DNA of 64,000 nucleotides, taken from Candidatus Aegiribacteria sp. (lineage in GTDB: Bacteria; Fermentibacterota; Fermentibacteria; Fermentibacterales; JCC-6). Where the stretch lies: contig JAUXIK010000006.1 in the NCBI GenBank assembly GCA_030620995.1, positions 137-64,136 of the forward strand, read 5' to 3'. Below the pieces are notes generated by a model that did no database searches, had not been told where the DNA came from, and saw only the letters and a list, made by a program, of their open reading frames with translations. Made by a program: the position numbers and the translations under genes. Below, one piece after another: positions 6,934 through 57,207 of this stretch (its first letter is position 1; every line of letters starts with the position of its first letter).

Positions 6934-7008
6934 GTATACTTGGTTAGGTTGACTTTTTTAAACACGAAGACAGTTACATCCTGTTAATACAGGGAAAGAG
7001 AAGGAATA

Positions 7009-7191
7009 ATGCCAGTACCTAAAAGAAGACATTCATCAACCAGACGAGATAAACGGAGAGCTAACGATGCTCTGAAAGCTAAATCAACAAGCAGTTGTCC
7101 TCAGTGTGGTGAACCGAGACTTCCGCACAGAGTATGTAAACATTGTGGATTCTATGATGGCAGACAGGTCATAGAACCGGAGGAGAAGTAA
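7009..7191 (+). CDS. rpmF: 50S ribosomal protein L32
   Basis: '[18 protein letters not shown]' plus zinc-ribbon 'CPQCGE...CKHCG'. Confidence 0.95.
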
Positions 7192-7224
7192 TCATCCGCA
7201 GTTGTTTTTCCGGAACTGAAGGAT

Positions 7225-8256
7225 TTGTCCTTGCCTGATTCACTCACTATTGCTATTGACGCTATGGGGGGAGACAACGGGCCTTCTGTAGTAGTTGACG
7301 GAGCAATACTGTTTTTCAGGGAATGCCACAGATTAGTTACTGAAAAAGTTTCTCTGATTCTCGTAGGAGACAGAGACTTGCTTGCAGGGCTGATTTCCCG
7401 CAGGGGAGGAGCCAGGCTTCCAATATCAATTCAGCATGCCTCTCAGGTCATTACAATGGATGATCATCCGGCTGAATCCCTGAAGAATAAGCCGGACAGC
7501 TCGATGCTTGTAATGGCCGGGCTCCAGAAGAAGGGGCTTGTGCAGGCAATGGTCAGTGCGGGCAATACCGGCGCAATGATGGCTGCAAGTCTTTTTGCTC
7601 TGGGAAGAATAAAAGGGGTTCCCCGTCCGGCAATTGCTGCTTCACTCCCCAGCCAGAATAATCCGACAGTCGTGCTGGATGTGGGGGCAAATATAGGGTG
7701 TAAACCGGAGCAGCTTCTTCAATTTGCGCTTATGGGAGATGCCTATTCAAGGTGCGTATTCGGAATTGATAATCCCAGAATAACTCTGCTCAATGTCGGT
7801 ACGGAGAAATCAAAGGGTCCTGCGATTATTCGGGAAGTATATGAAATGCTGGCTGTTTCGAAGTTGAATTTTAAGGGTTATATCGAAGGTGATGGAATAC
7901 TAAAAGGAGAAGCTGACGTTGTAGTCTGCGATGGATTTGTTGGCAACGTTCTTCTTAAAACCTTTGAGTCAATTGCGGACCTTGTTGGCGGATCTCTCTA
8001 CCTGGAAATGAAACGTCACTGGGCCTCAAGAGCCGGTTACCTTCTTATGCGGCATTCCTTTTCAAAGCTCTGGGAGAAACTGGACTCCGCGGAATACGGC
8101 GGGGCTCCCCTCCTTGGTCTTAATGGAGTATCAATTGTAGCTCACGGAAGCAGCAGCTCGAAGGCAATAAAGAACGCGATTGTTGCTTCCTGTGATTTTT
8201 ATCGAAGCGGGGTAAAAGAACGAATTCAGCAGGAAATTCAAGATACGATATCGTGA
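7225..8256 (+). CDS. plsX: phosphate acyltransferase
   Basis: 'IAIDAMGGDNGP', 'SAGNTGA' and 'DGFVGNVLLK'. Sits in the rpmF-plsX-fab context. Confidence 0.9.
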   Translation: MSLPDSLTIAIDAMGGDNGPSVVVDGAILFFRECHRLVTEKVSLILVGDRDLLAGLISRRGGARLPISIQHASQVITMDDHPAESLKNKPDSSMLVMAGLQKKGLVQAMVSAGNTGAMMAASLFALGRIKGVPRPAIAASLPSQNNPTVVLDVGANIGCKPEQLLQFALMGDAYSRCVFGIDNPRITLLNVGTEKSKGPAIIREVYEMLAVSKLNFKGYIEGDGILKGEADVVVCDGFVGNVLLKTFESIADLVGGSLYLEMKRHWASRAGYLLMRHSFSKLWEKLDSAEYGGAPLLGLNGVSIVAHGSSSSKAIKNAIVASCDFYRSGVKERIQQEIQDTIS

Positions 8257-8269
8257 GATTGGAGACATA

Positions 8270-9259
8270 GTGAGTAGGAATGCCTATATCGTTGGAACAG
8301 GTCATAAAGTCCCTGACGGAGTGCTGACAAATGCCGATCTTGAAAAGATCGTTGATACTACAGATGAATGGATAACAACCAGAACCGGGATAAAGGAACG
8401 AAGAAAAACAGATGACGATACTGCTACTTCGGATCTTGTAGCAGTTGCTGTTGAAAAAGCCATGAAGGATGCCGGCTGGAAGCCTGAGGATGTACAGGGT
8501 ATTATTGTAGGCACAGTAACACCGGATTATTGCTTCCCGTCAACTGCCGCTCTCGTGGCTGACAGGCTTGGTTTAGGCACAGTACCTGCCTACGATTTTG
8601 AAGCAGGATGCACCGCGTTCATCTATGGCCTTGTGCAGGCTAAAGCATTTATCGAATCCGGAATGATGGACAGGATTATAGTGGTAGGCGCAGACTGTCT
8701 GACAAAGATAACCAACTGGAACGACCGCACCAGCTGTATCCTATTTGGCGACGGAGCCGGAGCGGTAGCCGTGTCATCGGAAGGACCGGGCGGAAGACTG
8801 GGAGGGTGGCACTGGGGCAGTGACGGTTCTCTCGGAAAACATCTCATTCAACCCGGGGGTGGAGCCAGAAGACCCGCCTCTCACGAGACGGTTGATCTTA
8901 TCGAACACACGATTCATATGGATGGTTCCAGAATATTCAAGCATGCTGTAAGGGCAATGCGTGATTCATGCATGAAAGCGCTCGAGAAGGATGGCACGGA
9001 GAAGAAGGACGTTGATCTTCTCATTTCACATCAGGCGAACCTCAGAATTATAGATGCAACGGCACGAGCTCTTGAACTCAAACCTGAACAGGTTTACATA
9101 AATATTCAGAAGTATGGTAACACATCCGCGGCTTCCATTCCCATGGCGCTTGATGAAGCGATGAGAGATGGAACTATCAGCACTCCTAACACGGTTGTGC
9201 TTGCCGCTTTCGGTGCAGGGCTGACCTGGGGTGGAATGATATTGCACTGGGACGAATGA
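8270..9259 (+). CDS. fabH: 3-oxoacyl-ACP synthase III
   Basis: 'TSDEWI..RTGI' equivalent 'TDEWITTRTGIKERR', active-site Cys in 'EAGCTAF', 'HQANLRI' and 'GNTSAASIP'. Confidence 0.9.
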   Translation: MSRNAYIVGTGHKVPDGVLTNADLEKIVDTTDEWITTRTGIKERRKTDDDTATSDLVAVAVEKAMKDAGWKPEDVQGIIVGTVTPDYCFPSTAALVADRLGLGTVPAYDFEAGCTAFIYGLVQAKAFIESGMMDRIIVVGADCLTKITNWNDRTSCILFGDGAGAVAVSSEGPGGRLGGWHWGSDGSLGKHLIQPGGGARRPASHETVDLIEHTIHMDGSRIFKHAVRAMRDSCMKALEKDGTEKKDVDLLISHQANLRIIDATARALELKPEQVYINIQKYGNTSAASIPMALDEAMRDGTISTPNTVVLAAFGAGLTWGGMILHWDE

Positions 9260-9993
9260 GGGGGGCGACAGTGAACAGACTGGCTGTTGTAACAGGTGCC
9301 GCCAGAGGGATAGGTTTTTCGATTTCTGAGAAGCTTATTAACTCCGGATGGTCAGTAGCGGGCTGTGATGTGCTTGAGGAAGATCTGAATAAAAAATCCG
9401 AGCAGCTTGGAGATCATTTCAGTGCCTGGGTACTCGATATTGCAGACGAGGACGCTGTAAATGAAACCGCAGGCAGAATCGAGAAAGAGCTTGGCCCTGT
9501 ATTCGGCCTTGTGAACAATGCTGGAATCACCCGTGATGGTCTCATTATGCGAATGAAAAAAACTGACTGGGATGCCGTTCTGAATGTGAATCTTACAGGT
9601 GCTTTTCTTATGTGCAGGGCTTTTTCCCGTGGAATGCTGCGCCAGAAAGAGGGATCGATTGTTAATATTTCATCTGTTGTGGCATTACTGGGAGCAGCCG
9701 GACAGGCGAATTACGCATCTACCAAAGCAGGACTGATCGGTCTGACCAGAGCTTTATGCCGCGAGTTCGCGGCACGGAATATCCGCGTAAATGCGATTGC
9801 TCCAGGATTTATCGAGACAGAAATGACGAGTGAGCTTTCGGATGAGGTTCGAGAGGACTATGCCAGCAGGGTTCCAATGAAGAGAATGGGATTGCCCGGT
9901 AATGTTGCGGATGCGGTGCATTTTCTTCTTGATGATGTTTCCGCATATATTACCGGGGTAGTACTTCCGGTAGATGGCGGATTGACAACCTGA
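9256..9993 (+). CDS. fabG: 3-oxoacyl-ACP reductase
   Basis: SDR motifs 'VTGAARGIG', 'NNAG' and 'YASTKAG'. The start may instead be GTG at 9271. Confidence 0.9.
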   Translation: MRGATVNRLAVVTGAARGIGFSISEKLINSGWSVAGCDVLEEDLNKKSEQLGDHFSAWVLDIADEDAVNETAGRIEKELGPVFGLVNNAGITRDGLIMRMKKTDWDAVLNVNLTGAFLMCRAFSRGMLRQKEGSIVNISSVVALLGAAGQANYASTKAGLIGLTRALCREFAARNIRVNAIAPGFIETEMTSELSDEVREDYASRVPMKRMGLPGNVADAVHFLLDDVSAYITGVVLPVDGGLTT

Positions 9994-10006
9994 GAAAGGA
10001 CAAAAT

Positions 10007-10243
10007 ATGTCACTAGAAAGCCGTGTAGCTGAAATCATAATTGACAAGCTTGGCGTTAAGCCTGAGCAGATAACAGCGGAAGCACAGTTTGATACGGACC
10101 TCGGTGCTGACTCCATAGATCAGTACGAACTCATAATGGGGTTTGAAGATGCTTTCGGACTCAGGATCGATGAAGATGAAGCAACCAAGCTTACTACGGT
10201 TGGCAAGGTAGTAGAGTATCTCAAGGAAAAGGGTCTCGATTAA
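10007..10243 (+). CDS. acpP: acyl carrier protein
   Basis: 78 aa. Phosphopantetheine site 'LGADSIDQYELIM'. Confidence 0.9.
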   Translation: MSLESRVAEIIIDKLGVKPEQITAEAQFDTDLGADSIDQYELIMGFEDAFGLRIDEDEATKLTTVGKVVEYLKEKGLD

Positions 10244-10267
10244 AGGAACTGCTTTATTCGCACGGTG

Positions 10268-10298
10268 CGCACCGCAGGAAAATGTTTGCTGCGGTGCG
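10268..10298 (+). other. 10-bp perfect hairpin in the acpP-fabF spacer (no U-tract)
   Basis: cgcaccgcag (10268-10277) pairs with ctgcggtgcg (10289-10298) around an 11-nt loop. It could be an attenuator or processing site. Function not established. Confidence 0.3.
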
Positions 10299-10356
10299 GT
10301 ACTGTGTAAATAGACTGGTTCTGTTCAGAACGATATAAGAACAGGGGACGAATTCT

Positions 10357-11601
10357 ATGAGGAAACGTATTGTAATTACTGGAGTAGGTGCTATCAGTCC
10401 TGTTGGGTTGACAGTTCCTGAAAGCTGGGAGAGTACTCTGGCTGGACGGAGCGGGGTTACGAGAATGACCATTGTTGATCCGGAAGAGTTTCCCAGTCAG
10501 ATAGCTGGGGAAGTAAAGAATTTCGATCCTTTTGACTATTTAGATCCTAAACTTGCAAAGAGAACAGATAGATACACACAGTTCGCCATGATCGCATCCA
10601 GAGAGGCATTCGCTGATTCAGGTCTTAAGGGAAAGATCTCCCCTGAAAGGCTTGGTGTTATTGTTGGTTCGGGTATAGGCGGGATAACCACACTTGAGAG
10701 AGAGCATAAGGTTGCTCTGGAACGCGGTGTGCGTCGAATCAACCCGTTCTTCTGTCCGATGATGATCAGTAATATCGCAGCCGGAAGAGTAGGCATCGAT
10801 ATCTGCGCAAAGGGATTGAATTTTTCAACTGTAACCGCTTGTGCTTCAAGTGGACACGCTATTGCTGTCGCTACAGATATGATCAGACTCGGCAGGGCTG
10901 ACGCGATACTTGCGGGAGGATCGGAAGCTCCGTTGACTCTTACCGGAGTTGGTGGATTCTGTGCTCTTAAAGCTCTTTCAACCCGGAATGATGACCCTGA
11001 AACCGCATCAAGACCGTTTGATCGGGATAGAGATGGATTTGTAATCGCTGAGGGTGGCGCTGTAGTGATACTTGAGGAATTGGAACATGCTCTGAACAGA
11101 GGGGCTCATGTTTACGCTGAAGTTGTCGGGTCCGGAATGACCTGTGACGCTTTCCATATAACAGCCCCCTCTGAGGGTGGTGAAGGCTCAGCAAGAGCTA
11201 TGAAACTTGCCATGGAAGATGCCGGGATAGAACCTGAACAGGTTGATTACATCAATGCCCATGGAACATCCACGGTGCTTAATGACATAAACGAGACAAT
11301 AGCGATAAAAACAGCTCTTGGTGAGGAAAAAGCCAGAAGAATAGCGGTATCTTCAACTAAATCAGTTACCGGACACATGCTTGGAGCTGCCGGTGCGATA
11401 GAGGCAATATTTACATCTTTTGCTCTCAGCGAAGGAATTGTACCTCCCACCGCGACTCTGGTAAATCCTGATGAAGGGTGTGATCTGGATTATGTACCGG
11501 GCAGAGCCAGAGAAGCCGAATTGGTATATGCGCTATCCAATTCACTTGGTTTCGGTGGTCATAATGTCACACTTGCCCTGAAGAAGTACATGGGGAAGTA
11601 A
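10357..11601 (+). CDS. fabF: 3-oxoacyl-ACP synthase II
   Basis: Active-site 'TACASSGHAI', 'NAHGTST' and 'GHMLGAAG'. 414 aa. Confidence 0.9.
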   Translation: MRKRIVITGVGAISPVGLTVPESWESTLAGRSGVTRMTIVDPEEFPSQIAGEVKNFDPFDYLDPKLAKRTDRYTQFAMIASREAFADSGLKGKISPERLGVIVGSGIGGITTLEREHKVALERGVRRINPFFCPMMISNIAAGRVGIDICAKGLNFSTVTACASSGHAIAVATDMIRLGRADAILAGGSEAPLTLTGVGGFCALKALSTRNDDPETASRPFDRDRDGFVIAEGGAVVILEELEHALNRGAHVYAEVVGSGMTCDAFHITAPSEGGEGSARAMKLAMEDAGIEPEQVDYINAHGTSTVLNDINETIAIKTALGEEKARRIAVSSTKSVTGHMLGAAGAIEAIFTSFALSEGIVPPTATLVNPDEGCDLDYVPGRAREAELVYALSNSLGFGGHNVTLALKKYMGK

Positions 11602-11605
11602 TCAG

Positions 11606-12289
11606 ATGACCGGGCATCCGGTATCTGAGGTGGAGAAAATTCTCGGATACAGGTTCAGTAATCCAGACCTTCTCGAAAAAGCACTTACACACAGTTCCTG
11701 TACCGAAGGCAGTAGCTCCGGAGATAATTATGAAAGACTGGAGTTTCTTGGCGATGCCGTACTTGAACTGGTAACCAGAGAGTATCTTATGACTGAATAT
11801 CCTCAGGAGTCAGAGGGACATCTGACCAGGAGGAAAATCAAAATTGTCATGAAACAGAATCTGTCCGAACACGGACGCAGATTCGGATTGAATCGTTTCG
11901 TTCAGGTTGGGAATGGATTTGATGCATCTGAAGGAGCAATCGATACTATTGCCGCTGATGCTCTGGAGGCAATTATCGGGGCAATCTATCTGGATTCAGG
12001 TCTGAAGGCGGCGGAAGAATTTTTGCAGAGGGAGATTTTACAGAAATCTTCGGATATCAATCCCTTGCCTGACGCAAGGAGTGCTCTTCAGGAGTACTGT
12101 CAGGCAAAAGGGCTGACACTCCCTGAATACAGACTGGTTTCCAGTACCGGACCGGATCATAATCCTGTGTTTACTATTTCGGTCATTATTGATGGAGCAG
12201 AGGCTGGAACAGGTATCGGCCGAACGCGCAAGGCAGCCCGTGAAGCGGCAGCTGCCAGAGCGTTTGAATTTTTTGAGAGGATGGTTTGA
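11606..12289 (+). CDS. rnc: ribonuclease III
   Basis: Signature 'ERLEFLGDAVLEL' plus a C-terminal dsRBD 'GPDHNPVFTISVIIDG...GRTRKAAREAAA'. Confidence 0.9.
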   Translation: MTGHPVSEVEKILGYRFSNPDLLEKALTHSSCTEGSSSGDNYERLEFLGDAVLELVTREYLMTEYPQESEGHLTRRKIKIVMKQNLSEHGRRFGLNRFVQVGNGFDASEGAIDTIAADALEAIIGAIYLDSGLKAAEEFLQREILQKSSDINPLPDARSALQEYCQAKGLTLPEYRLVSSTGPDHNPVFTISVIIDGAEAGTGIGRTRKAAREAAAARAFEFFERMV

Positions 12290-12290
12290 T

Positions 12291-13463
12291 GTGAATTATT
12301 ACATTTCCGAAGAACTTAATGATATAAAGGAAATTTGTGCTGAAATTGCCGAGAAGTATATCGTTCCGATCAGAGCTGAGCTTGACGAAGAGAACCGTTT
12401 CCCGCGGGAAATAATGAAAATCATGGCTGAGAGTGATCTGCTTGGCATTTACATTCCGGAGGAGTACGGCGGATCAGCAGAGATGTTCGGTGGCGGTTCA
12501 ATGGCGCTTAGTGTTGCAACAGAGGAACTCAGCAGGGCATGCGGAGGAATTGCCGTATCCTATGCAGCGAATGCTCTTGGCGCAATGCCGATTCTGATTT
12601 CCGGTTCCGATGAACAGAAAAAGAAATATCTTCCCGACCTGGCATCCGGTGCAAAACTTGCAGCCTTCGCGCTTACCGAACCGGAAGCAGGAAGCGACGC
12701 GGGTGGAGTGAAGACCAAAGCGATAAAGGATGGTGATCACTACGTTCTCAATGGAACGAAACAGTGGATTACGAATGGCGGAGAGGCACAGATTTACACT
12801 GTTATTGCTCTGACAGATCCTTCCAGAGGTGCGAGGGGGCTTTCAGCCTTCATCGTTGAAGAGGGAACCCCGGGTTTCAGTTACGGCAAGAAGGAAGATA
12901 AGATGGGTATCAGGGCTTCCGCCACACGGGAGCTGATATTCGAAGATTGCAGAATTCAGGAGGAGAATCTCATTTCAAGAGAGGGCTACGGTTTCATAGT
13001 AGCCATGAAAACACTCAACAGATCGCGCCCAGGCGTGGCTTCCCAGGCAGTCGGCATCGCTCAGGGAGCGCTTGATGAAGCGGCTAAATATGCTTCTGAG
13101 CGAAAACAGTTCGGTCAGCGGATTGACTCTTTCCAGGGAATACAGTTCATGCTCGCCGATATGGCCACACAGGTTGAAGCGGCAAGGGCGCTCACGTACA
13201 GTGTTGCGAGAATGATCGATGCAGGAGAAAAGAAGTATGACAAGGAATCCGCAATGGCAAAAGTATTCGCCAGCGATGTCGCGATGAAAGTTTCTACTGA
13301 CGCTGTGCAGATTCTAGGCGGATACGGTTATATGAAGGAGTATCCTGTTGAAAAGATGATGCGCGACGCGAAGATCACTCAGATATATGAAGGCACGAAT
13401 CAGATTCAACGCAGCGTGATTGCTTCCGCGCTTATCAAGGAAACAGCGGCCAGGAGGAAATAG
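12291..13463 (+). CDS. acyl-CoA dehydrogenase (butyryl-CoA dehydrogenase-like)
   Basis: 'ALTEPEAGSD', 'KQWITNG' and 'YEGTNQIQR'. I start it at the in-frame GTG 12291, 1 nt after the rnc stop. The track ORF from 12189 overlaps rnc. Confidence 0.85.
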   Translation: MNYYISEELNDIKEICAEIAEKYIVPIRAELDEENRFPREIMKIMAESDLLGIYIPEEYGGSAEMFGGGSMALSVATEELSRACGGIAVSYAANALGAMPILISGSDEQKKKYLPDLASGAKLAAFALTEPEAGSDAGGVKTKAIKDGDHYVLNGTKQWITNGGEAQIYTVIALTDPSRGARGLSAFIVEEGTPGFSYGKKEDKMGIRASATRELIFEDCRIQEENLISREGYGFIVAMKTLNRSRPGVASQAVGIAQGALDEAAKYASERKQFGQRIDSFQGIQFMLADMATQVEAARALTYSVARMIDAGEKKYDKESAMAKVFASDVAMKVSTDAVQILGGYGYMKEYPVEKMMRDAKITQIYEGTNQIQRSVIASALIKETAARRK

Positions 13464-20418: not shown

Positions 20419-20504
20419 TGGCGGAGGACCGGGGACTCGAACCCCGAAGGGATTAAACCCGGCGGATTTCAAATCCGCTGCCTTACCAATTAGACTAGTC
20501 CTCC
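20419..20504 (-). tRNA. tRNA-Ser (anticodon UGA), CCA encoded
   Basis: Hand-folded cloverleaf. Acceptor GGAGGAC/GTCCTCC, T-arm CGGGG-TTCGAGT-CCCCG, anticodon arm GCGGA-TTTGAAA-TCCGC, long variable arm. 86 nt. Confidence 0.9.
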
Positions 20505-48078: not shown

Positions 48079-49275
48079 TCAGCCCTTCACAACACCAAGC
48101 GGTTTCAGCCTGACAACAGGTGTTACAAGATCCCGCTGGGCATGCATCACATCTTCTATGTTCTTATAAGCTGCCGGGGCCTCACTGAGATCAAGTGATG
48201 GAGATCCATGTTTCTTTCGGCCGTATCCTCTGTATCTTTTCCATCCGTCAAAAACGATGCCTTTCATAGATCTGTCACAATCACCGATAGAAAGTTTTCT
48301 GGAAGCTTCTCTTCTGCCCATGACTCTTCCAGCTCCATGAGAGCAACTGTTGAATGAATCAGGATTTCCGAGACCTTCGACAATGTACGAGAATGTTCCC
48401 ATGCTGCCGGGGATAATTCCTTTTTGACCTTTCCGTGCTGAAGTAGCGCCTTTCCTGTGAACCCAGACCTTTCTGCCGAAGTGCTTTTCCAGGGCTGCGT
48501 AATTATGGTGTATATTGACTTCCTTTGAGAAACTGACATTTCCCTTCACTTCGGTAAATACCTCCCTGAAAGATGTCATAAGCCTTCTCCGGTTCTCGGA
48601 GGCGAAATCCATTGCGAATTCCATTTCTCTGATATAGTCTCTTCCATCAGCAGAATCGACGGGGAGGTAGGAAAGATCCTTTGAAGGCAGTTCTTCGCGG
48701 TTACTGATACAGAACTTTACGGCCTTTTCATGATGATGTCCGGCAATTCGATATCCCGGATTTCGTGAACCGGAGTGAATCATGAGCCAGATCCACCCAT
48801 CGTCACCGGCCTGAATTTCCAGAAAGTGATTTCCTCCGCCAAGGGTTCCCAGACTTTTCTCCGCCAGATCTTTCCCTCTTTTGTCGAACCATGACGGAAG
48901 CCGCACGAACTGATTCCAGCTTTGAGCTGACCTGTGAGAATTTCCTTCTCCTGTCGGAATTCTCTTCCCGGTAATATCGATGATTCTTCTGATATCACTG
49001 ATGCTCAGATTGTCAGCCGGAATATCTGTTCGTGTGGCAACCATACCGCAGCCTATGTCCACACCTACAGCGTATGGAATAATAACTTTTTCGCAGGCAA
49101 TAACTCCACCTATGGGCATTCCGTATCCGGGATGGCAATCAGGCATTATTGCCACATGATGGAAGGTCTGGCTGTGCCGGGACAGGTTGATCGCCTGGTC
49201 CATCGCAATCTTCTCCACATCAGTGCTCCAGAACATTATGGGGATTCTGCCTGAATCCTTATCAACCCATTCCAT
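48079..49275 (-). CDS. rtcB: RNA 3'-phosphate ligase RtcB
   Basis: 'MPDCHPGYGMPIGG', 'GGGNHFLE', 'HSGSRNPG' and 'SCSHGAGR'. Confidence 0.9.
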   Translation of the reverse strand: MEWVDKDSGRIPIMFWSTDVEKIAMDQAINLSRHSQTFHHVAIMPDCHPGYGMPIGGVIACEKVIIPYAVGVDIGCGMVATRTDIPADNLSISDIRRIIDITGKRIPTGEGNSHRSAQSWNQFVRLPSWFDKRGKDLAEKSLGTLGGGNHFLEIQAGDDGWIWLMIHSGSRNPGYRIAGHHHEKAVKFCISNREELPSKDLSYLPVDSADGRDYIREMEFAMDFASENRRRLMTSFREVFTEVKGNVSFSKEVNIHHNYAALEKHFGRKVWVHRKGATSARKGQKGIIPGSMGTFSYIVEGLGNPDSFNSCSHGAGRVMGRREASRKLSIGDCDRSMKGIVFDGWKRYRGYGRKKHGSPSLDLSEAPAAYKNIEDVMHAQRDLVTPVVRLKPLGVVKG

Positions 49276-49443
49276 GATAGCCTCCTTATCAAAATGTAAT
49301 GCAATTCCAGGGCAGGGTCATCTCTTTCCTTTTAACATTGTCATCAGCTTTTCCAGCTTAACCGAAAAAGTATTGACTGCATTTGTTCTTTTTGACATGA
49401 GTCTTCATACTACAATAAACATTCTTATTTGGAGGTTTTGCTC

Positions 49444-52233
49444 ATGATGTCAGGATTAGTTCTTTTGGTTCTGGTAGCTGCCGGTTATCCCGGCCCTGAA
49501 AGCAGGGCTGACTACGATATGAATGTCTCGCTTCAGACGGATTCAAACATGATTCACGGTTCCGTGGAAATTGTCTTTACCAACGGGGTGGAATTCCCTG
49601 TTGATACACTCTGGCTTCATCTATATCCAAACGCTTACAGAGATCATACAACTGCATTCGGGCAGGATCTCGAGGCAGTCGGCCGTTACGGATTCAGAGC
49701 ATCTCCGGAATCGGAAAAAGGCTGGATCGATCTTTCGGACTGGAGTGCGGACGGGGAAGCTGTTGTGCCTTCAGTTGATGGCTCTCTGGCATTCATCCCG
49801 CTTGCTGATCCTCTTCAACCAGGTGAATCAATTCTGCTTTTTGGCGATTTCGACGTGCATGTTCCCAAATTCTGGAGCAGGATGGGGCATCTGGGAGATA
49901 CTTATCAGATAACGCAGTGGTATCCTAAAATGTGCGTTCTCGATGAGAATGGATGGCACAGGGCACGATATCACTGGAGAGGAGAGTTTTACAGCGATTA
50001 CGGGAATTATTCGATAACACTTGATGTTCCCGGGGAATTTATCACTGCTGCTACAGGATGTGTTGAAAGCACTTCTTTCAGTGAGGATTCACTTAGAAGA
50101 ACAGAAGTCTGGACCGCTGAAAATGTTCATGATTTCGTGTGGGCGGCCAGTCCTGACTATACTGTTCGCGAACACACATACGTCTATCCTGAAAGTCTGG
50201 GTTCCTGTTCGGTGAGTGTGCACCTGGTTCTGCTCGATGATTCAGATGATCACTGGGATGAGGTTCCCGCGGTTATCGATTCCACTCTTCTCTATTATGG
50301 AGAATGGTACACTCCATATCCTTACGAAGACCTCTGGGTAGTGGAGCCGGTTGTAGTGAGCGCAGGGGGGATGGAATATCCCCAGTTCGTATTCTCCGTG
50401 CCTGATTTTCCATTTCTCAGGATTCTTGAGATGGTCACAATGCATGAAATCGGGCACCAGTGGTTTTACGGGATGCTCGGTAATGATGAAGTAGAAGAGG
50501 CATGGCTGGATGAAGGAATGAACACCTTCAGTGAACTTCGCTATATGCAGAGAAGACATGGCTTCAGTGGTAATATGTCCAGAACTCCGGACTGGATACT
50601 GGAACTGAGTGATCAGGACATGAGTCTCATGACATATGTAACAGGTACTCTGGCCGGGGAAGAGGTTCCTGTACTCAGTAATGCTACCGAGGCCGGGGAT
50701 GGAAGCCATCCAACCGGATTCACCTATTACGCCAAGCCAGCCCTGTTCATGCGGATGCTTCAGCGGCAGATGGGTGAAGAGGATTTTAATCAGGTCATGT
50801 CGATCTACTTCGAAAGATTCATGTTCCACCATCCTCATACTGATGATTTTCAGGCAATAGTGGAAGAAGTTACAGGGAAATCCTGGGACGAGGAATTCAA
50901 TTTCTGGCTTAGAGGAACTGCAAATGCGGACGTTCTCATAAAGAATGTAACCTTCAACGCGGATTCAACTACTGCAATTGTTGCGGGTGATATCCCGCAC
51001 GAACTGGAACTTGATCTTTTGTTCCTTTCCGGTGAGGATTCTCTTATTACAAAGGCCACACTTACTCCGGGATTGAGTGATACAGTCACAGTTTCTGGAA
51101 ACTGGAGCACCGCCGTAATAGATCCGTTTCTATGCATGCCTGACAGGGCCCCATGGAATAACGCCTCGCCACCTCTCGGCCAGCTTAAACCGATGTTTCT
51201 TCCGATTCCAAGACCGACCCATCACAGCCTGTGGGTTCTCCCGTTCCCATCTTACGCCGATCATTCATGGAGAGCTGATATCATCTGCATGTCATCAACA
51301 ATTCCATCGTATATGGGAGGTCCGTACACCTGGACCGCATTTGCCTCTATTCCATTCAAAAGCGAGAGTTACTCGGCATGGGGTGCTTCTTTCCATATGC
51401 CTCTGTACCGGGAATATCGACGCAGCATCTATATGTCTTCCGGAATTTCAAGAGGGTACGGAATCGGCAGGGCTTCTCTCGGTGCTGACTATCTGCGAAG
51501 CGGCAGAGTGGCGACCGATCCTCATTACAGGATCTCGCTTGATATGGATCTGTTCTGCGTGGAGGACACAACGGTATACGGTGCTCTGAACGTCGAGGAA
51601 GGTAACGCTTTTGAATTCACAACATGTATAGCTGCCGTTGATCGGAACTACAGGTTATCATGGAACGGGGCTTTGAGTATTCTGGCTTCTCCGGAATGGA
51701 ATAACGAAGCTTACGCCAGGATTGACGGCAGGATCGAACTGACAGGCAGACTCTGGGGAGATTATCTGGCCAGAACCAGGATATATGCAGGCAGAATAGC
51801 CGGTGATGCTCCCGTTCAGCGCTTCTTAAGACCCGGTGGCGGACTCTTCGCAGAGGGTATTATGGGGGCATTTGTTCCCCCGAGCGGTTCGCTTTCCCCT
51901 CTGGAGCATTATTTCGTTCGGTCAGGACCAGCGCTTCCAGGCTACTGGAACAGCACCCTTCGAGGAAGAGCAGCCTTCTCGATTGAACAGAGATTACCGT
52001 TGCCCTCGCTGTTTATTCCTGTTGAAATATTCGGAGGAGCTGGATGGCTCGGCGATTCCTTTGGAGATTTCTCAGGTGATGATATTCTCTTAAATGCGGG
52101 AATAGCCGTGCGGATTGCGATGCTTGAAGCGATCTTTCCCATATGGGTATCCGATCCGGAAGGTGATGATAGCGAATGGGAATTCCGCTGGAGGATTGGA
52201 CTGTCACCCGCCGGTTTACCCGATCTGTACTGA
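49444..52233 (+). CDS. M1-family zinc metallopeptidase domain fused to a C-terminal Omp85/surface-antigen-like beta-barrel region
   Basis: ATG 49444 follows GGAGG. Signal peptide. 'GGMEY' and 'HEIGHQWFYGMLGNDEVEEAWLDE' give HExxH-X18-E. The C-terminus 'LPGYWNSTLRGRAAFSIEQRLPLP...FGGAGWLGDS...NAGIAVRI' resembles the Bac_surface_Ag barrel. Confidence 0.7.
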   Translation: MMSGLVLLVLVAAGYPGPESRADYDMNVSLQTDSNMIHGSVEIVFTNGVEFPVDTLWLHLYPNAYRDHTTAFGQDLEAVGRYGFRASPESEKGWIDLSDWSADGEAVVPSVDGSLAFIPLADPLQPGESILLFGDFDVHVPKFWSRMGHLGDTYQITQWYPKMCVLDENGWHRARYHWRGEFYSDYGNYSITLDVPGEFITAATGCVESTSFSEDSLRRTEVWTAENVHDFVWAASPDYTVREHTYVYPESLGSCSVSVHLVLLDDSDDHWDEVPAVIDSTLLYYGEWYTPYPYEDLWVVEPVVVSAGGMEYPQFVFSVPDFPFLRILEMVTMHEIGHQWFYGMLGNDEVEEAWLDEGMNTFSELRYMQRRHGFSGNMSRTPDWILELSDQDMSLMTYVTGTLAGEEVPVLSNATEAGDGSHPTGFTYYAKPALFMRMLQRQMGEEDFNQVMSIYFERFMFHHPHTDDFQAIVEEVTGKSWDEEFNFWLRGTANADVLIKNVTFNADSTTAIVAGDIPHELELDLLFLSGEDSLITKATLTPGLSDTVTVSGNWSTAVIDPFLCMPDRAPWNNASPPLGQLKPMFLPIPRPTHHSLWVLPFPSYADHSWRADIICMSSTIPSYMGGPYTWTAFASIPFKSESYSAWGASFHMPLYREYRRSIYMSSGISRGYGIGRASLGADYLRSGRVATDPHYRISLDMDLFCVEDTTVYGALNVEEGNAFEFTTCIAAVDRNYRLSWNGALSILASPEWNNEAYARIDGRIELTGRLWGDYLARTRIYAGRIAGDAPVQRFLRPGGGLFAEGIMGAFVPPSGSLSPLEHYFVRSGPALPGYWNSTLRGRAAFSIEQRLPLPSLFIPVEIFGGAGWLGDSFGDFSGDDILLNAGIAVRIAMLEAIFPIWVSDPEGDDSEWEFRWRIGLSPAGLPDLY

Positions 52234-52247
52234 AACCGGGGAGGAGA

Positions 52248-52505
52248 ATGAAAGCACTTGCGCTTTTCCTCTTGATGTTCCTTGTCCTGACAGGAGCAGT
52301 TTCTGAGGAATTCCAGTCCGAACAGGACAGCACGGATTCCGGACTGTTTCAGTTTCTTGTACGTATGGCCAGGACTGAGATCCGTCCATGGGCAAAACCG
52401 ATCGAGAATGTAGACATGGAGTGGATGCTGGAACTCTTCGAGAGTGGAATAATCACTTTTCATACTGCTGACTGGTATGTTGAAAAGGATGATCCGGATG
52501 AGTAA
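52248..52505 (+). CDS. small secreted protein
   Basis: ATG 52248 follows GAGGAG. Signal peptide 'MKALALFLLMFLVLTGAVS'. Its stop overlaps the start region of the next gene. Confidence 0.45.
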   Translation: MKALALFLLMFLVLTGAVSEEFQSEQDSTDSGLFQFLVRMARTEIRPWAKPIENVDMEWMLELFESGIITFHTADWYVEKDDPDE

Positions 52506-53490
52506 CAGGGTTCAGTGTGTTCTGTGTCCCCATTTATGTACCCTTGCTCCGGGGGAGAGGGGAAGGTGTAGCGTAAGATTGAATGTTGACGGTGAACTTG
52601 TCAGTCTTGTGTATGGCAGACCTGTCGCGGTGCACGTTGACCCGGTTGAGAAGAAGCCGCTCTTTCATTTTCTGCCTGGAATCGACGTGTTTTCTATCGC
52701 GACTGCCGGGTGCAATCTTCGATGTGAATTCTGCCAGAACTGGGAAATCTCCCAGGCAGCTCCTGAGGACGTTACACCATACGATTTACCCCCTGAGGCT
52801 GTTGTTGAGCAGGCAATCGCTTACAATTGCGAGGCTGTTGCTTACACCTATACGGAACCGGTTGTTTATTTTGAATACACCCGTGACACAGCAAAACTGG
52901 CAAAGGAGGCCGGACTGAAGAATATCCTTGTTACAGCAGGGTATATTAATCAGGGTCCGCTTACCGAACTCGCTGAGTATATCGATGCTGCAAATATTGA
53001 TCTTAAATCGATGTCAGACAGCTATTACAGAAATGTATGCGGTGGAACTCTCCAGCCTGTACTTGATACGATAACTACTCTGAAGGAACTTGGAACCTGG
53101 GTTGAAGTAACGAATCTTATTGTACCGACTTTGAATGATGACTCTGGAGAACTGGATGAGCTTGCCAGGTGGATTCTGGAGAACACCGGAGCTGATACAC
53201 CTCTTCATTTCTCAAGATTTTTTCCCATGTACAGACTGATTGATCTTGCTCCCACACCTGTATCCACACTGCAAAGTGCCAGGGAAAGGGCTCTTGAGAT
53301 AGGTCTTCATCATGTTTACGTCGGGAACGCAGTTACGGAGGAGGGGATGATAACAACATGTCCGGAGTGCAATGAAGTTCTCATCAATAGACAGGGATAC
53401 ATTATTACGGAGAACAACATTGAAAATGGAAAGTGCGGTAAATGTTCAACCCCGGTAGCAGGGGTATGGCATGGAATGGAGGAACAGTGA
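52477..53490 (+). CDS. AmmeMemoRadiSam-system radical SAM enzyme
   Basis: 'VQCVLCPHLCTLAPGERGRCSVR' and the radical SAM cluster 'CNLRCEFCQNW'. Adjacent to the Memo/AMMECR1 gene. Start alternatives are 52489 and 52498. Confidence 0.8.
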   Translation: MLKRMIRMSNRVQCVLCPHLCTLAPGERGRCSVRLNVDGELVSLVYGRPVAVHVDPVEKKPLFHFLPGIDVFSIATAGCNLRCEFCQNWEISQAAPEDVTPYDLPPEAVVEQAIAYNCEAVAYTYTEPVVYFEYTRDTAKLAKEAGLKNILVTAGYINQGPLTELAEYIDAANIDLKSMSDSYYRNVCGGTLQPVLDTITTLKELGTWVEVTNLIVPTLNDDSGELDELARWILENTGADTPLHFSRFFPMYRLIDLAPTPVSTLQSARERALEIGLHHVYVGNAVTEEGMITTCPECNEVLINRQGYIITENNIENGKCGKCSTPVAGVWHGMEEQ

Positions 53491-53498
53491 TCAGTAAA

Positions 53499-53660
53499 AT
53501 GAGCAGAAGAAAATTTCTCTCAAGGACTGTTCTACTGCTGTTCTCCGCGGTCGCGGCTGTTGCAGGAGGAAAGCTGCCGCAGGAGAAGGAAACAGCAGAA
53601 CTGGCAGTTAAAAGAACATCAAGAAAGAAGGCGGATTACTACAGGGAGCTTGCGGGATGA
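53499..53660 (+). CDS. 53-aa micro-protein with twin-arginine signal
   Basis: 'MSRRKFLSRTVLLLFSAVAAVAGG' followed by a 29-aa highly charged tail ending 'ADYYRELAG'. Starts 8 nt after the rSAM stop. An ATGA overlap joins it to the next gene. Confidence 0.45.
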   Translation: MSRRKFLSRTVLLLFSAVAAVAGGKLPQEKETAELAVKRTSRKKADYYRELAG

Positions 53661-55162
53661 GAACATTCATAATATTCGCAGTAGTCCTGTTCACCGCCTG
53701 CGGGAACAGTTCCCCCGGAGATGAAGAAGAAGTGTCCGGTACAGGGAGAGCAAGGCCGCCTGTTGTTGCCGGGATGTTCTATCCGGCGGATCCTGTTGAA
53801 CTGAGCAGTATGGTGGACAGACTGATCGACGCATCAGTAGTTCGGAGTACCGGCGGAACAATAATAGCGGGCGTTGTTCCACATGCGGGATACGTCTACA
53901 GTGGTGCTACCGCAGCTGATTTCTACAGTCTTATTGATGGGCTTGAGTTTGATGTTGTGATTCTCATCGGACCATCACACCGTGCTGCCTTCCAGGGCAT
54001 GTCCATATTCGATGGAGATTTCTACCTTACTCCTCTTGGAAGCGTTCCGGTTGCTGCAGATGTCGCTGACAGATTGAGGGAATCACATCCAGCAGCCTCA
54101 TTTATTCCAGCTGCTCACGAGGAGGAGCACAGCCTTGAAGTTCAGATCCCGTTTCTTCAGAGATCAATTGAACCAGGTTTCAGGATAGTACCGATAGTGA
54201 CCGGTTACACAGGAGCCAATGAGCTGCAATACATGGCCGAGTTGATCCTTGCTGAATCGTACAATGAAAAAATGCTTGTCCTTGCAAGCAGTGATCTGTC
54301 CCATTTTCCCGCCGAGAGTCTGGCAAGAGTTGTTGATTCTCTTACCGTGGAAGCGATATTGAGTGGAGACATGAATCAATTCCTTCAGGTTACTTCTGAA
54401 GAAGAACTTCCCTCCGGGCTTGATACGTTTGCGTGTGGAAGGCTTCCAATTGCTCTGGTTATGGCTTATACCGGTCTTTATCCCGGAGTTACATCTGAAC
54501 TGCTGTCGAGCACAACAAGCGCTTCTGTCTCCGGAGACTATTCACGAGTTGTCGGATACGCTTCCATTGCATTTGAATCGTTAGAACCTGAACCGTCGGA
54601 ATGGAGCATTTCAGAGGAAGGGCGAGAAGAACTTCTTGAGATTGCAATCGCGTCTGTTGAGGCGGCAGTTGAAAATACCGGATTTAACTTGCCGGATGAT
54701 ACTTCCCTGGAGCTGTTGATTCCACGCGGAGCCTTCGTGACCTTGAAGAGAAACGGCCGTCTCAGGGGCTGTATTGGCTCTATGAGACCGATTCGACCTG
54801 TTGCCGAGACAGTATTGTTAATGGCCCGGTCAGCCGCGATGGAAGATCCACGCTTTATGCCGGTAACGCCTGGTGAACTTCCTGATCTTGAATACGAGAT
54901 TTCCGTTCTTACACCCCTTCAGATACTTGAGGACTGGCATGATGTAAGAGTGGGAACGGATGGTTTAATGATATCCGCCCGTAACAGAAGCGGTGTCCTT
55001 CTGCCTCAGGTTCCGGTTGAACAGGGCTGGAACAGAGAGGAGTTCCTTGAAGGTGTCTGTCTGAAAGCTGGATTGAGTCCTGACGCCTATCTTGGTGAAG
55101 TTACACTCTACCGTTTTCAAGCTCAGGTGTTTGGAGAAGATGAGGAATACTCAGAAGACTGA
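53657..55162 (+). CDS. Memo (AmmeMemoRadiSam protein B) - AMMECR1 (protein A) fusion with lipoprotein-type signal
   Basis: 'MRTFIIFAVVLFTAC' signal. Memo motifs 'VAGMFYP', 'PHAGYVYSG', 'GPSH', 'EHSLEVQIPF' and 'SSDLSH'. AMMECR1 motifs 'GAFVTLK' and 'LRGCIGS'. Confidence 0.85.
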   Translation: MRTFIIFAVVLFTACGNSSPGDEEEVSGTGRARPPVVAGMFYPADPVELSSMVDRLIDASVVRSTGGTIIAGVVPHAGYVYSGATAADFYSLIDGLEFDVVILIGPSHRAAFQGMSIFDGDFYLTPLGSVPVAADVADRLRESHPAASFIPAAHEEEHSLEVQIPFLQRSIEPGFRIVPIVTGYTGANELQYMAELILAESYNEKMLVLASSDLSHFPAESLARVVDSLTVEAILSGDMNQFLQVTSEEELPSGLDTFACGRLPIALVMAYTGLYPGVTSELLSSTTSASVSGDYSRVVGYASIAFESLEPEPSEWSISEEGREELLEIAIASVEAAVENTGFNLPDDTSLELLIPRGAFVTLKRNGRLRGCIGSMRPIRPVAETVLLMARSAAMEDPRFMPVTPGELPDLEYEISVLTPLQILEDWHDVRVGTDGLMISARNRSGVLLPQVPVEQGWNREEFLEGVCLKAGLSPDAYLGEVTLYRFQAQVFGEDEEYSED

Positions 55163-55178
55163 AGATAAATCACTGTCC

Positions 55179-57179
55179 GTGCTGGCCGCTTTTGCAGGAG
55201 GAATGCTTTCTGTCATTATTCAGGCGGTAGTATTAAGAGAATCCCTTTTTGGTCATCATCAGGCGGAACTGACATCCGGAATAGTCCTTGCATCATGGAT
55301 TGCCGGATCCGGTATTGGCGCGGCAATTGGTGGAAGGACTTCAAAACACAGTCTCCTATGGGTAACGGGTATGATTCTGCTTCCTGTTCTGGGATTTCTT
55401 CAAGTAGCTGCTTCCAGACTGGAGATAATTCCTACTGCGTTATCCGTGCTTCCTGCTGGATTTGTCGGCGGATTGGTGTTCGTGCAGCCATTTGCTTTCT
55501 GCAGACCTGGAAAAGTATATGCTCTTGAAGCTCTTGGTGCTGCAGTTGGTGGCGGGATATTCATCCTTCTTTCGCCGCATCTGCTCGCTTTCGAAATGCT
55601 CTCTGTTTCCATCCTTATCTCTGCCGCCGGCCTGTTGCTCTGTAGAAGACCTGTTCCCGGACTGATTGTTTCAGCTGTTCTTCTGGCAGGATTTCTGTTC
55701 GGCGCACCCGAATCGCTGGGAACCTGGCTTGCAGGTGAATCATTTAAAGAGTATGACAGTGTCAGTATCCACTCATCACCGTACGGAGAAGTGGTTACCG
55801 GAACCAGATCCGGTCAACATGCTATTTTCAGGAGCGGTTTACTGGAGGCTACATGGCCTTCGCTGGAATCCGCAGAGGGGGTTGTCACAGTTCCTCTTAT
55901 CGCGGTTCTGCCATCCCGTGTTCTATATATAGGTTCTTCGCCGGAAGAGGCGCGGATCATATCGGAATGGCCGACCGTAGACAGTGTTGTAACCGTGGTT
56001 CCAGACAGGACACTATGCTTTGTAGCGGAATATCCTGAAGGAACAAGAGCGGGAGATGGAAGACGTTTTCTATCCGGGAATGATGAGCGCTGGGATCTTG
56101 TAATAGTGTCTACGGGCCAGCCTTTGACCCTTCTCTCCAACAGGTTTTTCACCAGAGAATTCTTTGAACTGCTCTCAGGCAGGCTTACTGAGGATGGTGT
56201 CGCAGCTATCCGCCTTCCTGGAGGGATAAACAGATTACATCCACTTGAAGCGGAACTTGCAAAATCCATACTTCTATCCGCGGAGAGTGTATTCCACTGG
56301 AGCAGAATCCTGCCCTCTTCGGGTCTTGTTCTTTTGACGGGAAACGGTCTGGAGCCATCATTTGAAGGTTCGGTACTGGCAGAGAGAATGGATTCCATTG
56401 GAGCATCAGGTGTCTTTGTCAACTCAGGTACACTTCCATTTGATCTGTCACACTTGAGATTGTCCGCTGTTGAGGAACAGCTTCATGCTGCTTCAGCACG
56501 CAAAAATACCGATCTTCACCCGGAGGGCTTCCGGATTGCCTGTGAGTTATGGGATGTAAGGGTAGGTGATGATCAAAAACTCAACCTTACACTTCCCATA
56601 GCCGGTTTATGCTTATTAGCAATGATTACAGCAGCGTTTCTAAGCGGTAAAGTCAAACCTGCCCTGGCGCTGGGTATGGTGGGTTTTATCGGCTTATCCG
56701 TTGAGGTTATCGCTCTGGTTGCCATTCAAGCTGTTACAGGTCACTCATGGGTGCTTGTAGGAGCCATCACCGGCACTTTCATGGCCGGCGGAGCTCTTGG
56801 CGCTCTCGGGCAGGATAAGGGCGTGTTCTGCAATCTCAGACAGCTGGTTGTCCTATCAGGGATCTCATCTCTGTTTTCCGTCCTTGTTCTGTACTTATAC
56901 GATCAGGGGTTGCTTGGTGGCGGACTGCTCTCTTTGCTGCTCCTTATAGGAATTATGGTTTGCGGGGTGGCAAGCGGTGGAGCTTTCCCGGTCGCGGTAA
57001 CACTCCTGAAGGCGGGAGATACGAGAAGAATAGGCCTGCTGGACCTGGCAGAACACGGGGGCAGTGCTGCTGCTGCTCTTCTCATGCCCCTTGTCCTGTT
57101 TCCACTGCTCGGCGCGCAGGTAGCTCTCCTCATAACCACCGCAGCAATAATAGTGACAGGCACTCTTTTAAGAAACTGA
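55179..57179 (+). CDS. polytopic membrane protein with central spermidine-synthase-like domain
   Basis: About 7 N-terminal and about 6 C-terminal hydrophobic segments flank 'VLYIGSSPEE...WDLVIVSTGQP', a degenerate SAM/aminopropyltransferase-like fold. GTG 55179, or ATG 55140/55203. Confidence 0.55.
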   Translation: MLAAFAGGMLSVIIQAVVLRESLFGHHQAELTSGIVLASWIAGSGIGAAIGGRTSKHSLLWVTGMILLPVLGFLQVAASRLEIIPTALSVLPAGFVGGLVFVQPFAFCRPGKVYALEALGAAVGGGIFILLSPHLLAFEMLSVSILISAAGLLLCRRPVPGLIVSAVLLAGFLFGAPESLGTWLAGESFKEYDSVSIHSSPYGEVVTGTRSGQHAIFRSGLLEATWPSLESAEGVVTVPLIAVLPSRVLYIGSSPEEARIISEWPTVDSVVTVVPDRTLCFVAEYPEGTRAGDGRRFLSGNDERWDLVIVSTGQPLTLLSNRFFTREFFELLSGRLTEDGVAAIRLPGGINRLHPLEAELAKSILLSAESVFHWSRILPSSGLVLLTGNGLEPSFEGSVLAERMDSIGASGVFVNSGTLPFDLSHLRLSAVEEQLHAASARKNTDLHPEGFRIACELWDVRVGDDQKLNLTLPIAGLCLLAMITAAFLSGKVKPALALGMVGFIGLSVEVIALVAIQAVTGHSWVLVGAITGTFMAGGALGALGQDKGVFCNLRQLVVLSGISSLFSVLVLYLYDQGLLGGGLLSLLLLIGIMVCGVASGGAFPVAVTLLKAGDTRRIGLLDLAEHGGSAAAALLMPLVLFPLLGAQVALLITTAAIIVTGTLLRN

Positions 57180-57207
57180 AAGGGAGCCAGCATGAACTGG
57201 CTCCCTT
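57180..57207. terminator. hairpin between convergent genes
   Basis: 11-bp stem aagggagccag/ctggctccctt with a 6-nt loop. A T-rich run follows on the minus strand only. Confidence 0.5.

Follow-up and report, generated by a model that had tools for sequence, protein, structure and literature searches.

The conservation of Memo and AMMECR1 extends from archaea to humans, and they have links to human disease; to our knowledge, neither has an agreed biochemical function. Together with a radical S-adenosylmethionine (SAM) enzyme they make up the AmmeMemoRadiSam system, which is found in a cytoplasmic form in archaea and Proteobacteria. Here we analyzed a block of five genes in a stretch of 64,000 nucleotides from Candidatus Aegiribacteria sp. 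(Fermentibacterota; contig JAUXIK010000006.1, positions 137 to 64,136 of the forward strand), which is called the window throughout. The block resembles the cytoplasmic systems, as the same three protein families score above their cut-offs, lie adjacent and co-oriented, and Memo and AMMECR1 are fused. It differs from them in that every component has, or pairs with, an export signal, and in that two extra conserved genes are present, one for a small partner with a twin-arginine translocation (Tat) signal and one for a membrane protein combining major facilitator superfamily (MFS)-like helices with a spermidine-synthase fold. On balance, we consider it probable that the block is the operon of an extracytoplasmic AmmeMemoRadiSam system whose radical SAM enzyme is exported by Tat via a split signal.

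In the literature, we found no functional or localisation study of AmmeMemoRadiSam, of AMMECR1 with radical SAM, or of a twin-arginine radical SAM enzyme. An earlier description by Burroughs et al. 2019 is possible; according to the passages citing it in PMC7159879 and PMC7694686, that work deals with Memo-AMMECR1 gene contexts. Likewise, the literature yielded no assigned reaction for the AmmeMemoRadiSam radical SAM enzyme and nothing on an exported variant with four to five components, of which a prior description is again possible. The genes of the block are as follows.

52248 to 52505, + strand: small, apparently secreted or anchored protein of 85 amino acids (aa), without a Pfam or NCBIfam match
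52498 to 53490, + strand: AmmeMemoRadiSam radical SAM enzyme, short form (TIGR04337, 390 bits; PF04055, 80.5 bits)
53487 to 53660, + strand: small protein with a twin-arginine signal (SRRKFL and a hydrophobic stretch), 57 aa from a GTG start or 53 aa from ATG 53499
53657 to 55162, + strand: Memo-AMMECR1 fusion (system proteins B and A), 501 aa (TIGR04336, TIGR04335, PF01875, PF01871)
55140 to 57179, + strand: polytopic membrane protein, 679 aa (AlphaFold, Foldseek, family profile, adjacency)

By all curated thresholds, the locus is a bona fide AmmeMemoRadiSam system, in an exported form with four to five components. The fusion scored 252.5 bits against the hidden Markov model (HMM) TIGR04336 for Memo (residues 33-306, cut-off 26) and 165.5 bits against TIGR04335 for AMMECR1 (residues 325-492, cut-off 99), with 174 bits each for PF01875 and PF01871. 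The enzyme scored 390 bits against TIGR04337 (cut-off 220, E = 7.8e-117), its residues 3-328 aligning with HMM positions 10-337 of 349, and it contains the radical SAM motif CNLRCEFC within the Radical_SAM domain as well as an N-terminal CVLCPHLC. A preliminary description of this DNA, made by a model from the letters alone, had named these three families, and all of them were recovered above their cut-offs. In the window their genes adjoin and overlap, and the families co-occur in most related loci too. The closest database matches of the window proteins come from Candidatus Aegiribacteria, with up to 98% identity for the fusion and four loci at 89-94%.

The fusion opens with MRTFIIFAVVLFTAC, which conforms to the lipobox rule (M-R-TFIIFAVVLF-T-A-C15) when compared by eye with the pattern of PROSITE PS51257. 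For a lipoprotein call, [LVI..][ASTVI][GAS]C had to come after a basic n-region plus hydrophobic stretch, and its Cys had to fall at position 15-35. The pattern M[RK]-hydrophobic-AC[GS] was present in nearly all full-length Fermentibacterota orthologs of the fusion at 44-98% identity (P0001-P0066). Because the lipobox is conserved across the phylum, the N-terminus is not a mis-called start, and the envelope address with a lipoprotein-type signal that the preliminary description had read from the window sequence is supported by comparison of the orthologs.

The fusion of the two domains, previously singled out as a special feature, turned out to be common: at least 7640 matches at E <= 1e-10 were obtained among the 8000 candidates scored, and both Pfam domains were present in 120 of the 120 matches listed. 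Export recurs as well. When loci outside Fermentibacterota were sampled by fusion similarity, 19 of 76 encoded a fusion with a signal or anchor. Over all loci surveyed, fusions with Sec, lipoprotein or anchor signals were found in Acidobacteriota, Zixibacteria, Ignavibacteria, Planctomycetota, Verrucomicrobiota, Bacteroidota, Chloroflexota, the candidate phyla radiation (CPR) and DPANN. Proteobacterial fusions begin directly at the Memo domain, without a signal. Overall, about 170 loci from more than 15 phyla including archaea combine a signal-bearing fusion with a 14-helix MFS-like protein, whose spermidine-synthase-fold domain is predicted to lie on the outer side, and a radical SAM enzyme that is usually Tat-signalled. 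Judging from these loci, the exported form is widespread and the window variant is not the unusual one it had been taken for. In one locus from Syntrophobacterales (L007:7950-11878), an exported fusion stands beside separate Memo-like and AMMECR1-like genes and an enzyme with a Tat signal, so that the partner domains occur in two copies at one locus.

The radical SAM enzyme of the window begins directly at the first Cys motif MSNRVQCVLCPHLC (VQCVLCP) without a signal of its own and, unlike the long-form AmmeMemoRadiSam enzymes, lacks the N-terminal strand (HMM positions 1-9). Among its 120 best homologs, nearly all of them without an N-terminal signal, about 105 were full-length short forms (321-343 aa), about 11 were seemingly N-terminally truncated and four were long forms. 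Omnitrophota, Hydrogenedentes and Thermodesulfovibrionales are represented among the closest short forms. Long-form enzymes encoded beside signal-bearing fusions usually open with (S/T)RRxF(L/I)K, or a KR variant of it, and a hydrophobic stretch; after this signal a linker leads to (K)EAx(Y/F)YxKL, a few residues ahead of the first Cys motif. Canonical (S/T)RRxFLK motifs occur on long-form enzymes in both bacteria and archaea. Cytoplasmic-form enzymes show P(A/G)R(W/Y)WHxLxDGRIQC without a signal and, by our reading of the surveyed loci, no enzyme signal is present in any of the signal-less proteobacterial loci.

A twin-arginine signal is encoded immediately downstream of the window enzyme. 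The small open reading frame (ORF) at this position carries the signal SRRKFLSRTVLLLFSAVAAVAGG, in which SRRKFLS matches the (S/T)RRxFLK consensus and is followed by a hydrophobic stretch; this is the sole Tat-like motif among window ORFs of at least 45 aa. Its Fermentibacterota orthologs keep RRxF[LM] and the C-terminal RTSRKKADYYRELAG. The only curated match was TIGR02811 (formate dehydrogenase region TAT target; 16.2 bits, E = 0.0098), below the cut-off of 48.45, and the likeness is confined to the signal. When an HMM was built from the N-termini of long-form enzymes of other phyla, the small ORF ranked first of 1215 six-frame ORFs of the window (E = 9.6e-4), with a runner-up at E of about 1, and the alignment spanned it end to end, from the RR motif to KKADYYREL. 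In 43 of 83 scanned loci, a short enzyme is followed immediately by a 40-74-aa ORF with a Tat motif (for example MKRRDFLRVFLLGGILTLFAGKVKAEKKPQNNLKEAMFWRKLD), and manual inspection added two further pairs, including one from the cultured Lentisphaerota strain zth2.

A long-form enzyme was modelled by AlphaFold with a predicted local distance difference test (pLDDT) of 88.8. In this model the segment KEAKYYRKL is ordered (pLDDT 97) and pairs with the VQC strand in a hairpin, and for this reason the tail of the small protein could complement the short enzyme. We interpret the small ORF as the detached N-terminus of the enzyme, consisting of the Tat signal and the first beta-strand and serving as a Tat-targeting partner. 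We infer that the enzyme is exported on a hitchhiker Tat route via the small protein. Hitchhiker Tat export is known for two-subunit [NiFe] hydrogenases (PMC10924467). In both cases a signal-less iron-sulfur (Fe-S) enzyme is encoded beside a twin-arginine-bearing partner, with coupled translation; here, unlike in the hydrogenases, the carrier has only about 57 aa, is apparently a detached piece of its cargo and is encoded downstream, and its binding and co-export would have to be assumed.

Two loci show further arrangements of this segment. At L185:6646-8208, the Tat piece (MKLLSRRHILGLL...RKEARFYRIL) stands in frame ahead of the own lipobox signal of a Memo-AMMECR1 lipoprotein, either as a natural fusion or after loss of a stop codon. 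In the complete genome of Lentisphaerota strain zth2 (L203, CP071032.1), the split architecture is complete at positions 6998-12598, with a short enzyme, a small ORF of the KR variant (AKREFIK...GDWLG), a fusion that bears a signal, and the membrane protein. This cultured organism is a possible experimental host.

The preliminary description had the enzyme acting before export. On such a model, only Memo-AMMECR1 would be exported, the enzyme would remain cytoplasmic and modify its partner or a peptide beforehand, and the small Tat protein would be an independent envelope component. In favour of it, the window enzyme itself bears no signal, SAM and low-potential reductants belong to the cytoplasm, and no Tat machinery was found in the window or in the related Fermentibacterota loci examined. 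In addition, the Sec-type signal means that the fusion crosses unfolded and could be modified beforehand. Anaerobic sulfatase-maturating enzymes work in this way, being cytoplasmic radical SAM enzymes without a signal that act on exported sulfatases. They are comparable to the window enzyme in their genetic linkage to an exported partner; they differ in that the AmmeMemoRadiSam enzyme family is itself Tat-signalled in many lineages. Against this model, orthologous enzymes from many phyla bear their own twin-arginine or anchor signals in precisely those cases in which the fusion is exported, and the small ORF, which always directly follows short-form enzymes, matches this signal-bearing N-terminus including its structural strand. 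Because the sister-lineage enzymes are Tat-signalled and the small ORF corresponds to their N-terminus, moved downstream, we regard an enzyme acting before export as unlikely.

The position of the small ORF directly beside a radical SAM gene would also suit a precursor peptide of the kind seen with ribosomally synthesized and post-translationally modified peptides (RiPPs) or peptide-derived cofactors (cf. PqqA, MftA), its C-terminus being modified by the enzyme and the product exported by Tat for Memo-AMMECR1. The C-terminal motif ending in [W/L/M]-x-G is conserved across phyla, and the 31-aa mature part is strongly charged, as such a precursor might be. Against this stands that, in long forms, the same segment belongs to the enzyme polypeptide and is a well-ordered strand in the model. 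Moreover, the TIGR04337 enzyme of the window gave no match to a SPASM domain or a RiPP recognition element (RRE)-type peptide-recognition domain, just Radical_SAM and a weak Fer4_12, and its nearest families are protein-radical activases. A precursor role of the small ORF therefore seems quite improbable.

The same relatives bear on the target of the exported enzyme. Its best-scoring characterized relatives are pyruvate formate-lyase activase and other glycyl-radical activases (TIGR02493, 63.9 bits; TIGR02494, 53 bits), with scores far under the family cut-offs; unlike these, the window enzyme has extra N- and C-terminal Cys clusters, and no glycyl-radical enzyme is encoded in the locus. Since the nearest characterized relatives are activases of this type, a protein partner would be the likeliest target, perhaps the AMMECR1 or the Memo domain.

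The polytopic membrane protein was modelled by AlphaFold with a pLDDT of 89.8 and a predicted template modelling score (pTM) of 0.88. The model consists of seven transmembrane (TM) helices, a beta N-domain with a Rossmann domain, and another seven TM helices. Foldseek matched the central domain to aminopropyltransferases (1uir; E = 9e-11, target-normalised TM-score 0.66) and the helices to the MFS protein SV2A (E 3e-5), and the family profile found spermidine synthases in the PDB (7xif) with E = 1e-32. The protein itself stayed below the curated cut-offs of TIGR00417 (21.5 bits, cut-off 249.55), PF01564 (19.2 bits, cut-off 22.9) and NF037959, the fused MFS/spermidine synthase family (16.9 bits in the soluble domain only, cut-off 40). 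Distant homologs carry PF01564, two to three of them also with a weak MFS_1 match; these matches and the structure model suggest MFS-like helices in the window protein.

Lys/Arg counts across 12 homologs, with TM segments set by a greedy peak picker, favour an N-in orientation, which after seven helices would place the large domain outside. We take SV2A to have a large luminal (non-cytoplasmic) domain between helices 7 and 8 as well. The aminopropyltransferase fold of the central domain and the MFS-like helices on either side of it link the protein to polyamine aminopropyltransferases and NF037959; what sets it apart is the place of this domain between helices 7 and 8, its predicted outward orientation, and the loss of both the glycine loop (G-loop) and the catalytic Asp. 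The former is degenerate (YIGSSPEE instead of GGGxG), and VSTGQP replaces D-x-x-D-P, whereas relatives from Planctomycetota and Acidobacteriota retain GGxxG and (D/E)P. Given these lost motifs and the predicted outward-facing position, an active spermidine synthase is not plausible in this lineage. Of the earlier label "roughly 13-TM spermidine-synthase-like protein", the fold was borne out; the helix count was corrected to 7 + 7 by the model, and activity as a synthase was not retained.

Linkage of this gene to the exported form was strong. In the 76 loci sampled by fusion similarity, it adjoins 7 of the 19 signal-bearing fusions and none of the 57 signal-less ones (Fisher p = 2.3e-5). In a second sample, taken from the side of the membrane protein (locus scan from a 4-sequence alignment, 572 relatives, best 80 loci kept), the enzyme gene, the fusion gene or both directly adjoin it in about 67 of 80 loci, and most exceptions are cut by contig ends. 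The fusions in these loci again bear lipoprotein or signal sequences. The loci come from Planctomycetota, Verrucomicrobiota, Bacteroidota, Desulfobacterota, Chloroflexota, Ignavibacteria, Omnitrophota, DPANN, Altiarchaeota and Methanosarcinales. This linkage marks the membrane protein as a conserved fourth component of the exported form. Just upstream of its gene, L119:7349-7777 and five other loci of Syntrophales/Desulfobacterota encode a DUF2784 membrane protein (PF10861, E = 3e-16).

The gene order within Fermentibacterota runs from an 81-93-aa ORF through the enzyme, an ORF of about 55 aa with the RR motif and the fusion to a gene for about 680 aa, and it is retained at 67%, 60% and 44% fusion identity. 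Both micro-ORFs thus proved to be conserved proteins that stay with the membrane gene down to 44% identity, which answers the question of co-travel raised in the preliminary description. At the most distant Fermentibacterota locus (L085), the upstream peptidase gene is gone and the 677-aa membrane gene lies 1.9 kb further on. The interval between fusion and membrane gene (L085:8518-10140) holds a 41-aa ORF, an FmdE-domain gene, a TrmO_N-domain gene and a 168-aa gene.

Related loci in other lineages contain additional genes. Six loci, mostly from DPANN, encode TatC no more than about 4 kb away from the system; five of them are archaeal (DPANN, Altiarchaeota) and one is from a Clostridia metagenome-assembled genome (L101:5977-6687, L116:6991-7689 on the - strand, L140, L143, L148 and L163); in the two checked with Pfam, L101 and L116, PF00902 matched with an E of about 1e-58 (E = 6e-59). 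In loci from the Planctomycetes-Verrucomicrobia-Chlamydiae group (PVC), Hydrogenedentota and Bacteriovoracaceae, the membrane protein is fused C-terminally to FMN_bind and two Fer4_5 domains, giving 1150-1220 aa (L167:9003-12545, L179:7160-10816 and L193:9620-13081, the three loci checked with Pfam). In an Omnitrophota locus (L166:4371-6014), FMN_bind, Fer4_5 and Fer4 occur on a protein of their own, 547 aa long, whose gene overlaps the enzyme start. We take this arrangement of FMN_bind and Fer4_5 to resemble NosR/NapH, membrane flavo-Fe-S proteins that pass electrons on to enzymes of the periplasm. The likeness lies in the two domains, which PVC, Hydrogenedentota and Omnitrophota loci encode in fusion with the membrane protein or next to it; the difference is that such a module is missing from the window and the examined Fermentibacterota loci, and it would be a candidate electron donor to the enzyme. 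Both the NosR-like modules and TatC suggest extracytoplasmic activity, which again argues against an enzyme that remains in the cytoplasm.

In 29 loci (e.g. L092:6155-6421, +, and L038:11757-12023, +), a protein of 80-120 aa with 2-3 TM helices is encoded between membrane protein and enzyme. It has a conserved His pair (...ALxIH..F.WPL.....VH....Y.A.RRWGWI) and weak matches, below cut-off, to cytochrome b561 (22 bits) and Sdh_cyt. This protein occurs in Planctomycetota, Verrucomicrobiota, DPANN and Syntrophales and is absent from the window; it could serve as a haem-b electron conduit. Neither NosR-like nor cytochrome-b-like genes were found in the window or the examined Fermentibacterota loci. 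Ferredoxin matches at L176 turned out to be generic Fer4 proteins.

Taken as a mechanism, the split-signal reading would proceed as follows. The fusion would leave the cytoplasm by Sec and become lipid-anchored at the outer face of the cytoplasmic membrane. The enzyme would receive its Fe-S clusters and fold in the cytoplasm and then cross by Tat; having no signal, it would ride on the protein of about 57 aa encoded just downstream, that is, on its own ancestral N-terminus (twin-arginine signal and first beta-strand) split off into a separate gene. The C-terminal ADYYRELAG of the small protein would dock on the N-terminal VQC strand of the enzyme. As a fixed fourth subunit, the 14-helix MFS-like protein would show its spermidine-synthase-fold domain on the outer face and may move or hand over an adenosyl cofactor or a substrate, with no aminopropyltransferase action in this lineage. 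In other lineages, NosR-like FMN/Fe-S modules or the cytochrome-b-like protein would be candidate electron suppliers. From this, we tentatively propose, with less confidence than an even chance would warrant, radical SAM chemistry outside the cytoplasm: a class of systems in anaerobic bacteria, DPANN and other archaea may export the folded enzyme by Tat, with the membrane protein supplying cofactor or substrate, the redox modules supplying electrons, and the lipid-anchored Memo-AMMECR1 or an envelope molecule as target.

If this is true, the enzyme would be the first radical SAM enzyme active outside the cytoplasm, as far as we know and the literature found shows, and it would pose the sharp question of how SAM and low-potential electrons reach it. 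Tat hitchhiking would also take an unusual form, the carrier being a detached piece of the cargo. For Memo and AMMECR1, the exported form provides handles: two faithfully linked extra components (the SAM-enzyme-fold, transporter-like protein and the Tat partner), lineage-specific electron-transfer modules, and a cultured host with the split architecture, Lentisphaerota strain zth2.

Several observations weigh against export of the enzyme through a split signal. Some long-form enzymes have N-termini of lipoprotein or Sec type without the RR motif, namely in Omnitrophota (L184, L219, L220, L229, L236 and L246), in Calescamantes (L202) and in P0267 and P0295 (example MKNALKLFFSLIFFVTLIAAC); such lipoprotein-type signals fit poorly with export of a folded Fe-S enzyme and are hard to reconcile with it. 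The homology statistics of the small ORF are modest. An HMM of 55 full-length signal-bearing enzymes gave it only E = 0.82, a weak result that we attribute to the poor N-terminal alignment of that model, which is why an HMM of the N-terminal regions only was used instead. Joining the small-ORF tail to the enzyme added 2.2 bits on TIGR04337, compared with 0.8 for a shuffled tail, and shifted the alignment start from HMM position 10 to 3; the effect is weak and we do not rely on it. Small ORFs of the PVC type end in ...GKWSG, not in the KEAxFY motif. Searches of the 64-kb window and of 212 kb from related Fermentibacterota loci turned up neither tatA nor tatC, and no second Tat-motif ORF either (size limits: 45 aa or more in the window, 100 aa or more in the related loci). 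In addition, we know of no extracytoplasmic source of SAM, and the lost G-loop and Asp weaken a cofactor-binding role of the membrane protein in the window lineage. Finally, all signal calls were made from motifs, hydrophobicity and conservation.

This last point leads to the suspicion that what was read as signals reflects annotation artefacts or plain membrane tethers and that the whole system sits on the cytoplasmic face of the membrane. The calls indeed derive from sequence features, and the hydrophobic N-termini without RR on some enzymes could be anchors. Such a reading would have to account for a lipobox Cys at a fixed distance in dozens of orthologs, for basic residues ahead of the hydrophobic stretch, which imply an N-in/C-out orientation, and for the canonical (S/T)RRxFLK motifs in bacteria and archaea. 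Furthermore, the FMN_bind domain is extracytoplasmic in NosR, RnfG and NqrC, and the charge bias of the membrane-protein loops agrees with an outward orientation. A system lying wholly inside is thus very improbable in our view.

The block is flanked by two further features.

49429 to 52233, + strand: M1-family peptidase-like protein, 934 aa (PF01433, 65 bits), with a hydrophobic N-terminus
57180 to 57207, no strand assigned: 12-bp GC-rich hairpin between convergent genes, directly after the last gene of the block

The five + strand genes of the preliminary description, their tight coupling and their junctions were all located in the sequence. The peptidase stop at 52233 is followed by GGAGGAG and, after a gap of 14 nt, by ATG 52248. 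The end of the 85-aa ORF overlaps the enzyme start as ATGAGTAA at 52498-52505, the enzyme stop TGA is at 53488-53490 with an ATG of the small ORF at 53499, the small ORF overlaps the fusion as ATGA at 53657-53660, and the fusion stop TGA is at 55160-55162. Two of the gene starts assumed earlier were replaced, while the genes themselves stood. The position of ATG 53499 reads ATC in the three closest relatives, and GTG 53487, preceded by GGAGGA, is conserved in four of four sequences and overlaps the enzyme stop as GTGA; for this reason the small ORF probably starts at GTG 53487 and encodes 57 aa. For the membrane gene, ATG 55140, which overlaps the fusion by 23 nt, is most likely the start and not GTG 55179, because the resulting 679-aa product has a database entry with 100% identity. 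Both revised starts tighten the gene coupling: enzyme, small ORF and fusion are coupled through the GTGA and ATGA overlaps. The hairpin at 57180-57207 is probably the operon terminator, and no comparable hairpin was found within the five-gene block. The M1-peptidase-like gene is probably the first gene of the operon and shares the transcript with the block.

The first protein of the block has the family core RPWAKPIExVDM...G.LTFH.A.WY with nine invariant columns and occupies the same position in L002-4, L081, L084 and L085. An exhaustive search of 1.84 billion representatives gave 14 clusters only at E<1e-3, all of them 79-107 aa and nearly all N-terminally hydrophobic. The 85-aa protein appears to be specific to Fermentibacterota and to be secreted or anchored. 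Its origin as a detached piece of a larger protein was rejected, since the search gave stand-alone proteins of 79-107 aa only. In the Aegiribacteria loci L002-L004, L081 and L083, the block is preceded by the M1-peptidase-like gene; because this gene is missing from L085, we place it outside the conserved core, as a lineage-specific neighbour. Divergent from it, the window encodes a 398-aa protein at 48079-49275 (- strand) whose orthologs in L081 and L083 belong to the RtcB family (PF01139), and this pairing is kept in both Aegiribacteria loci. The sole tRNA of the window is a tRNA-Ser (anticodon TGA) at 20419-20504 on the - strand.

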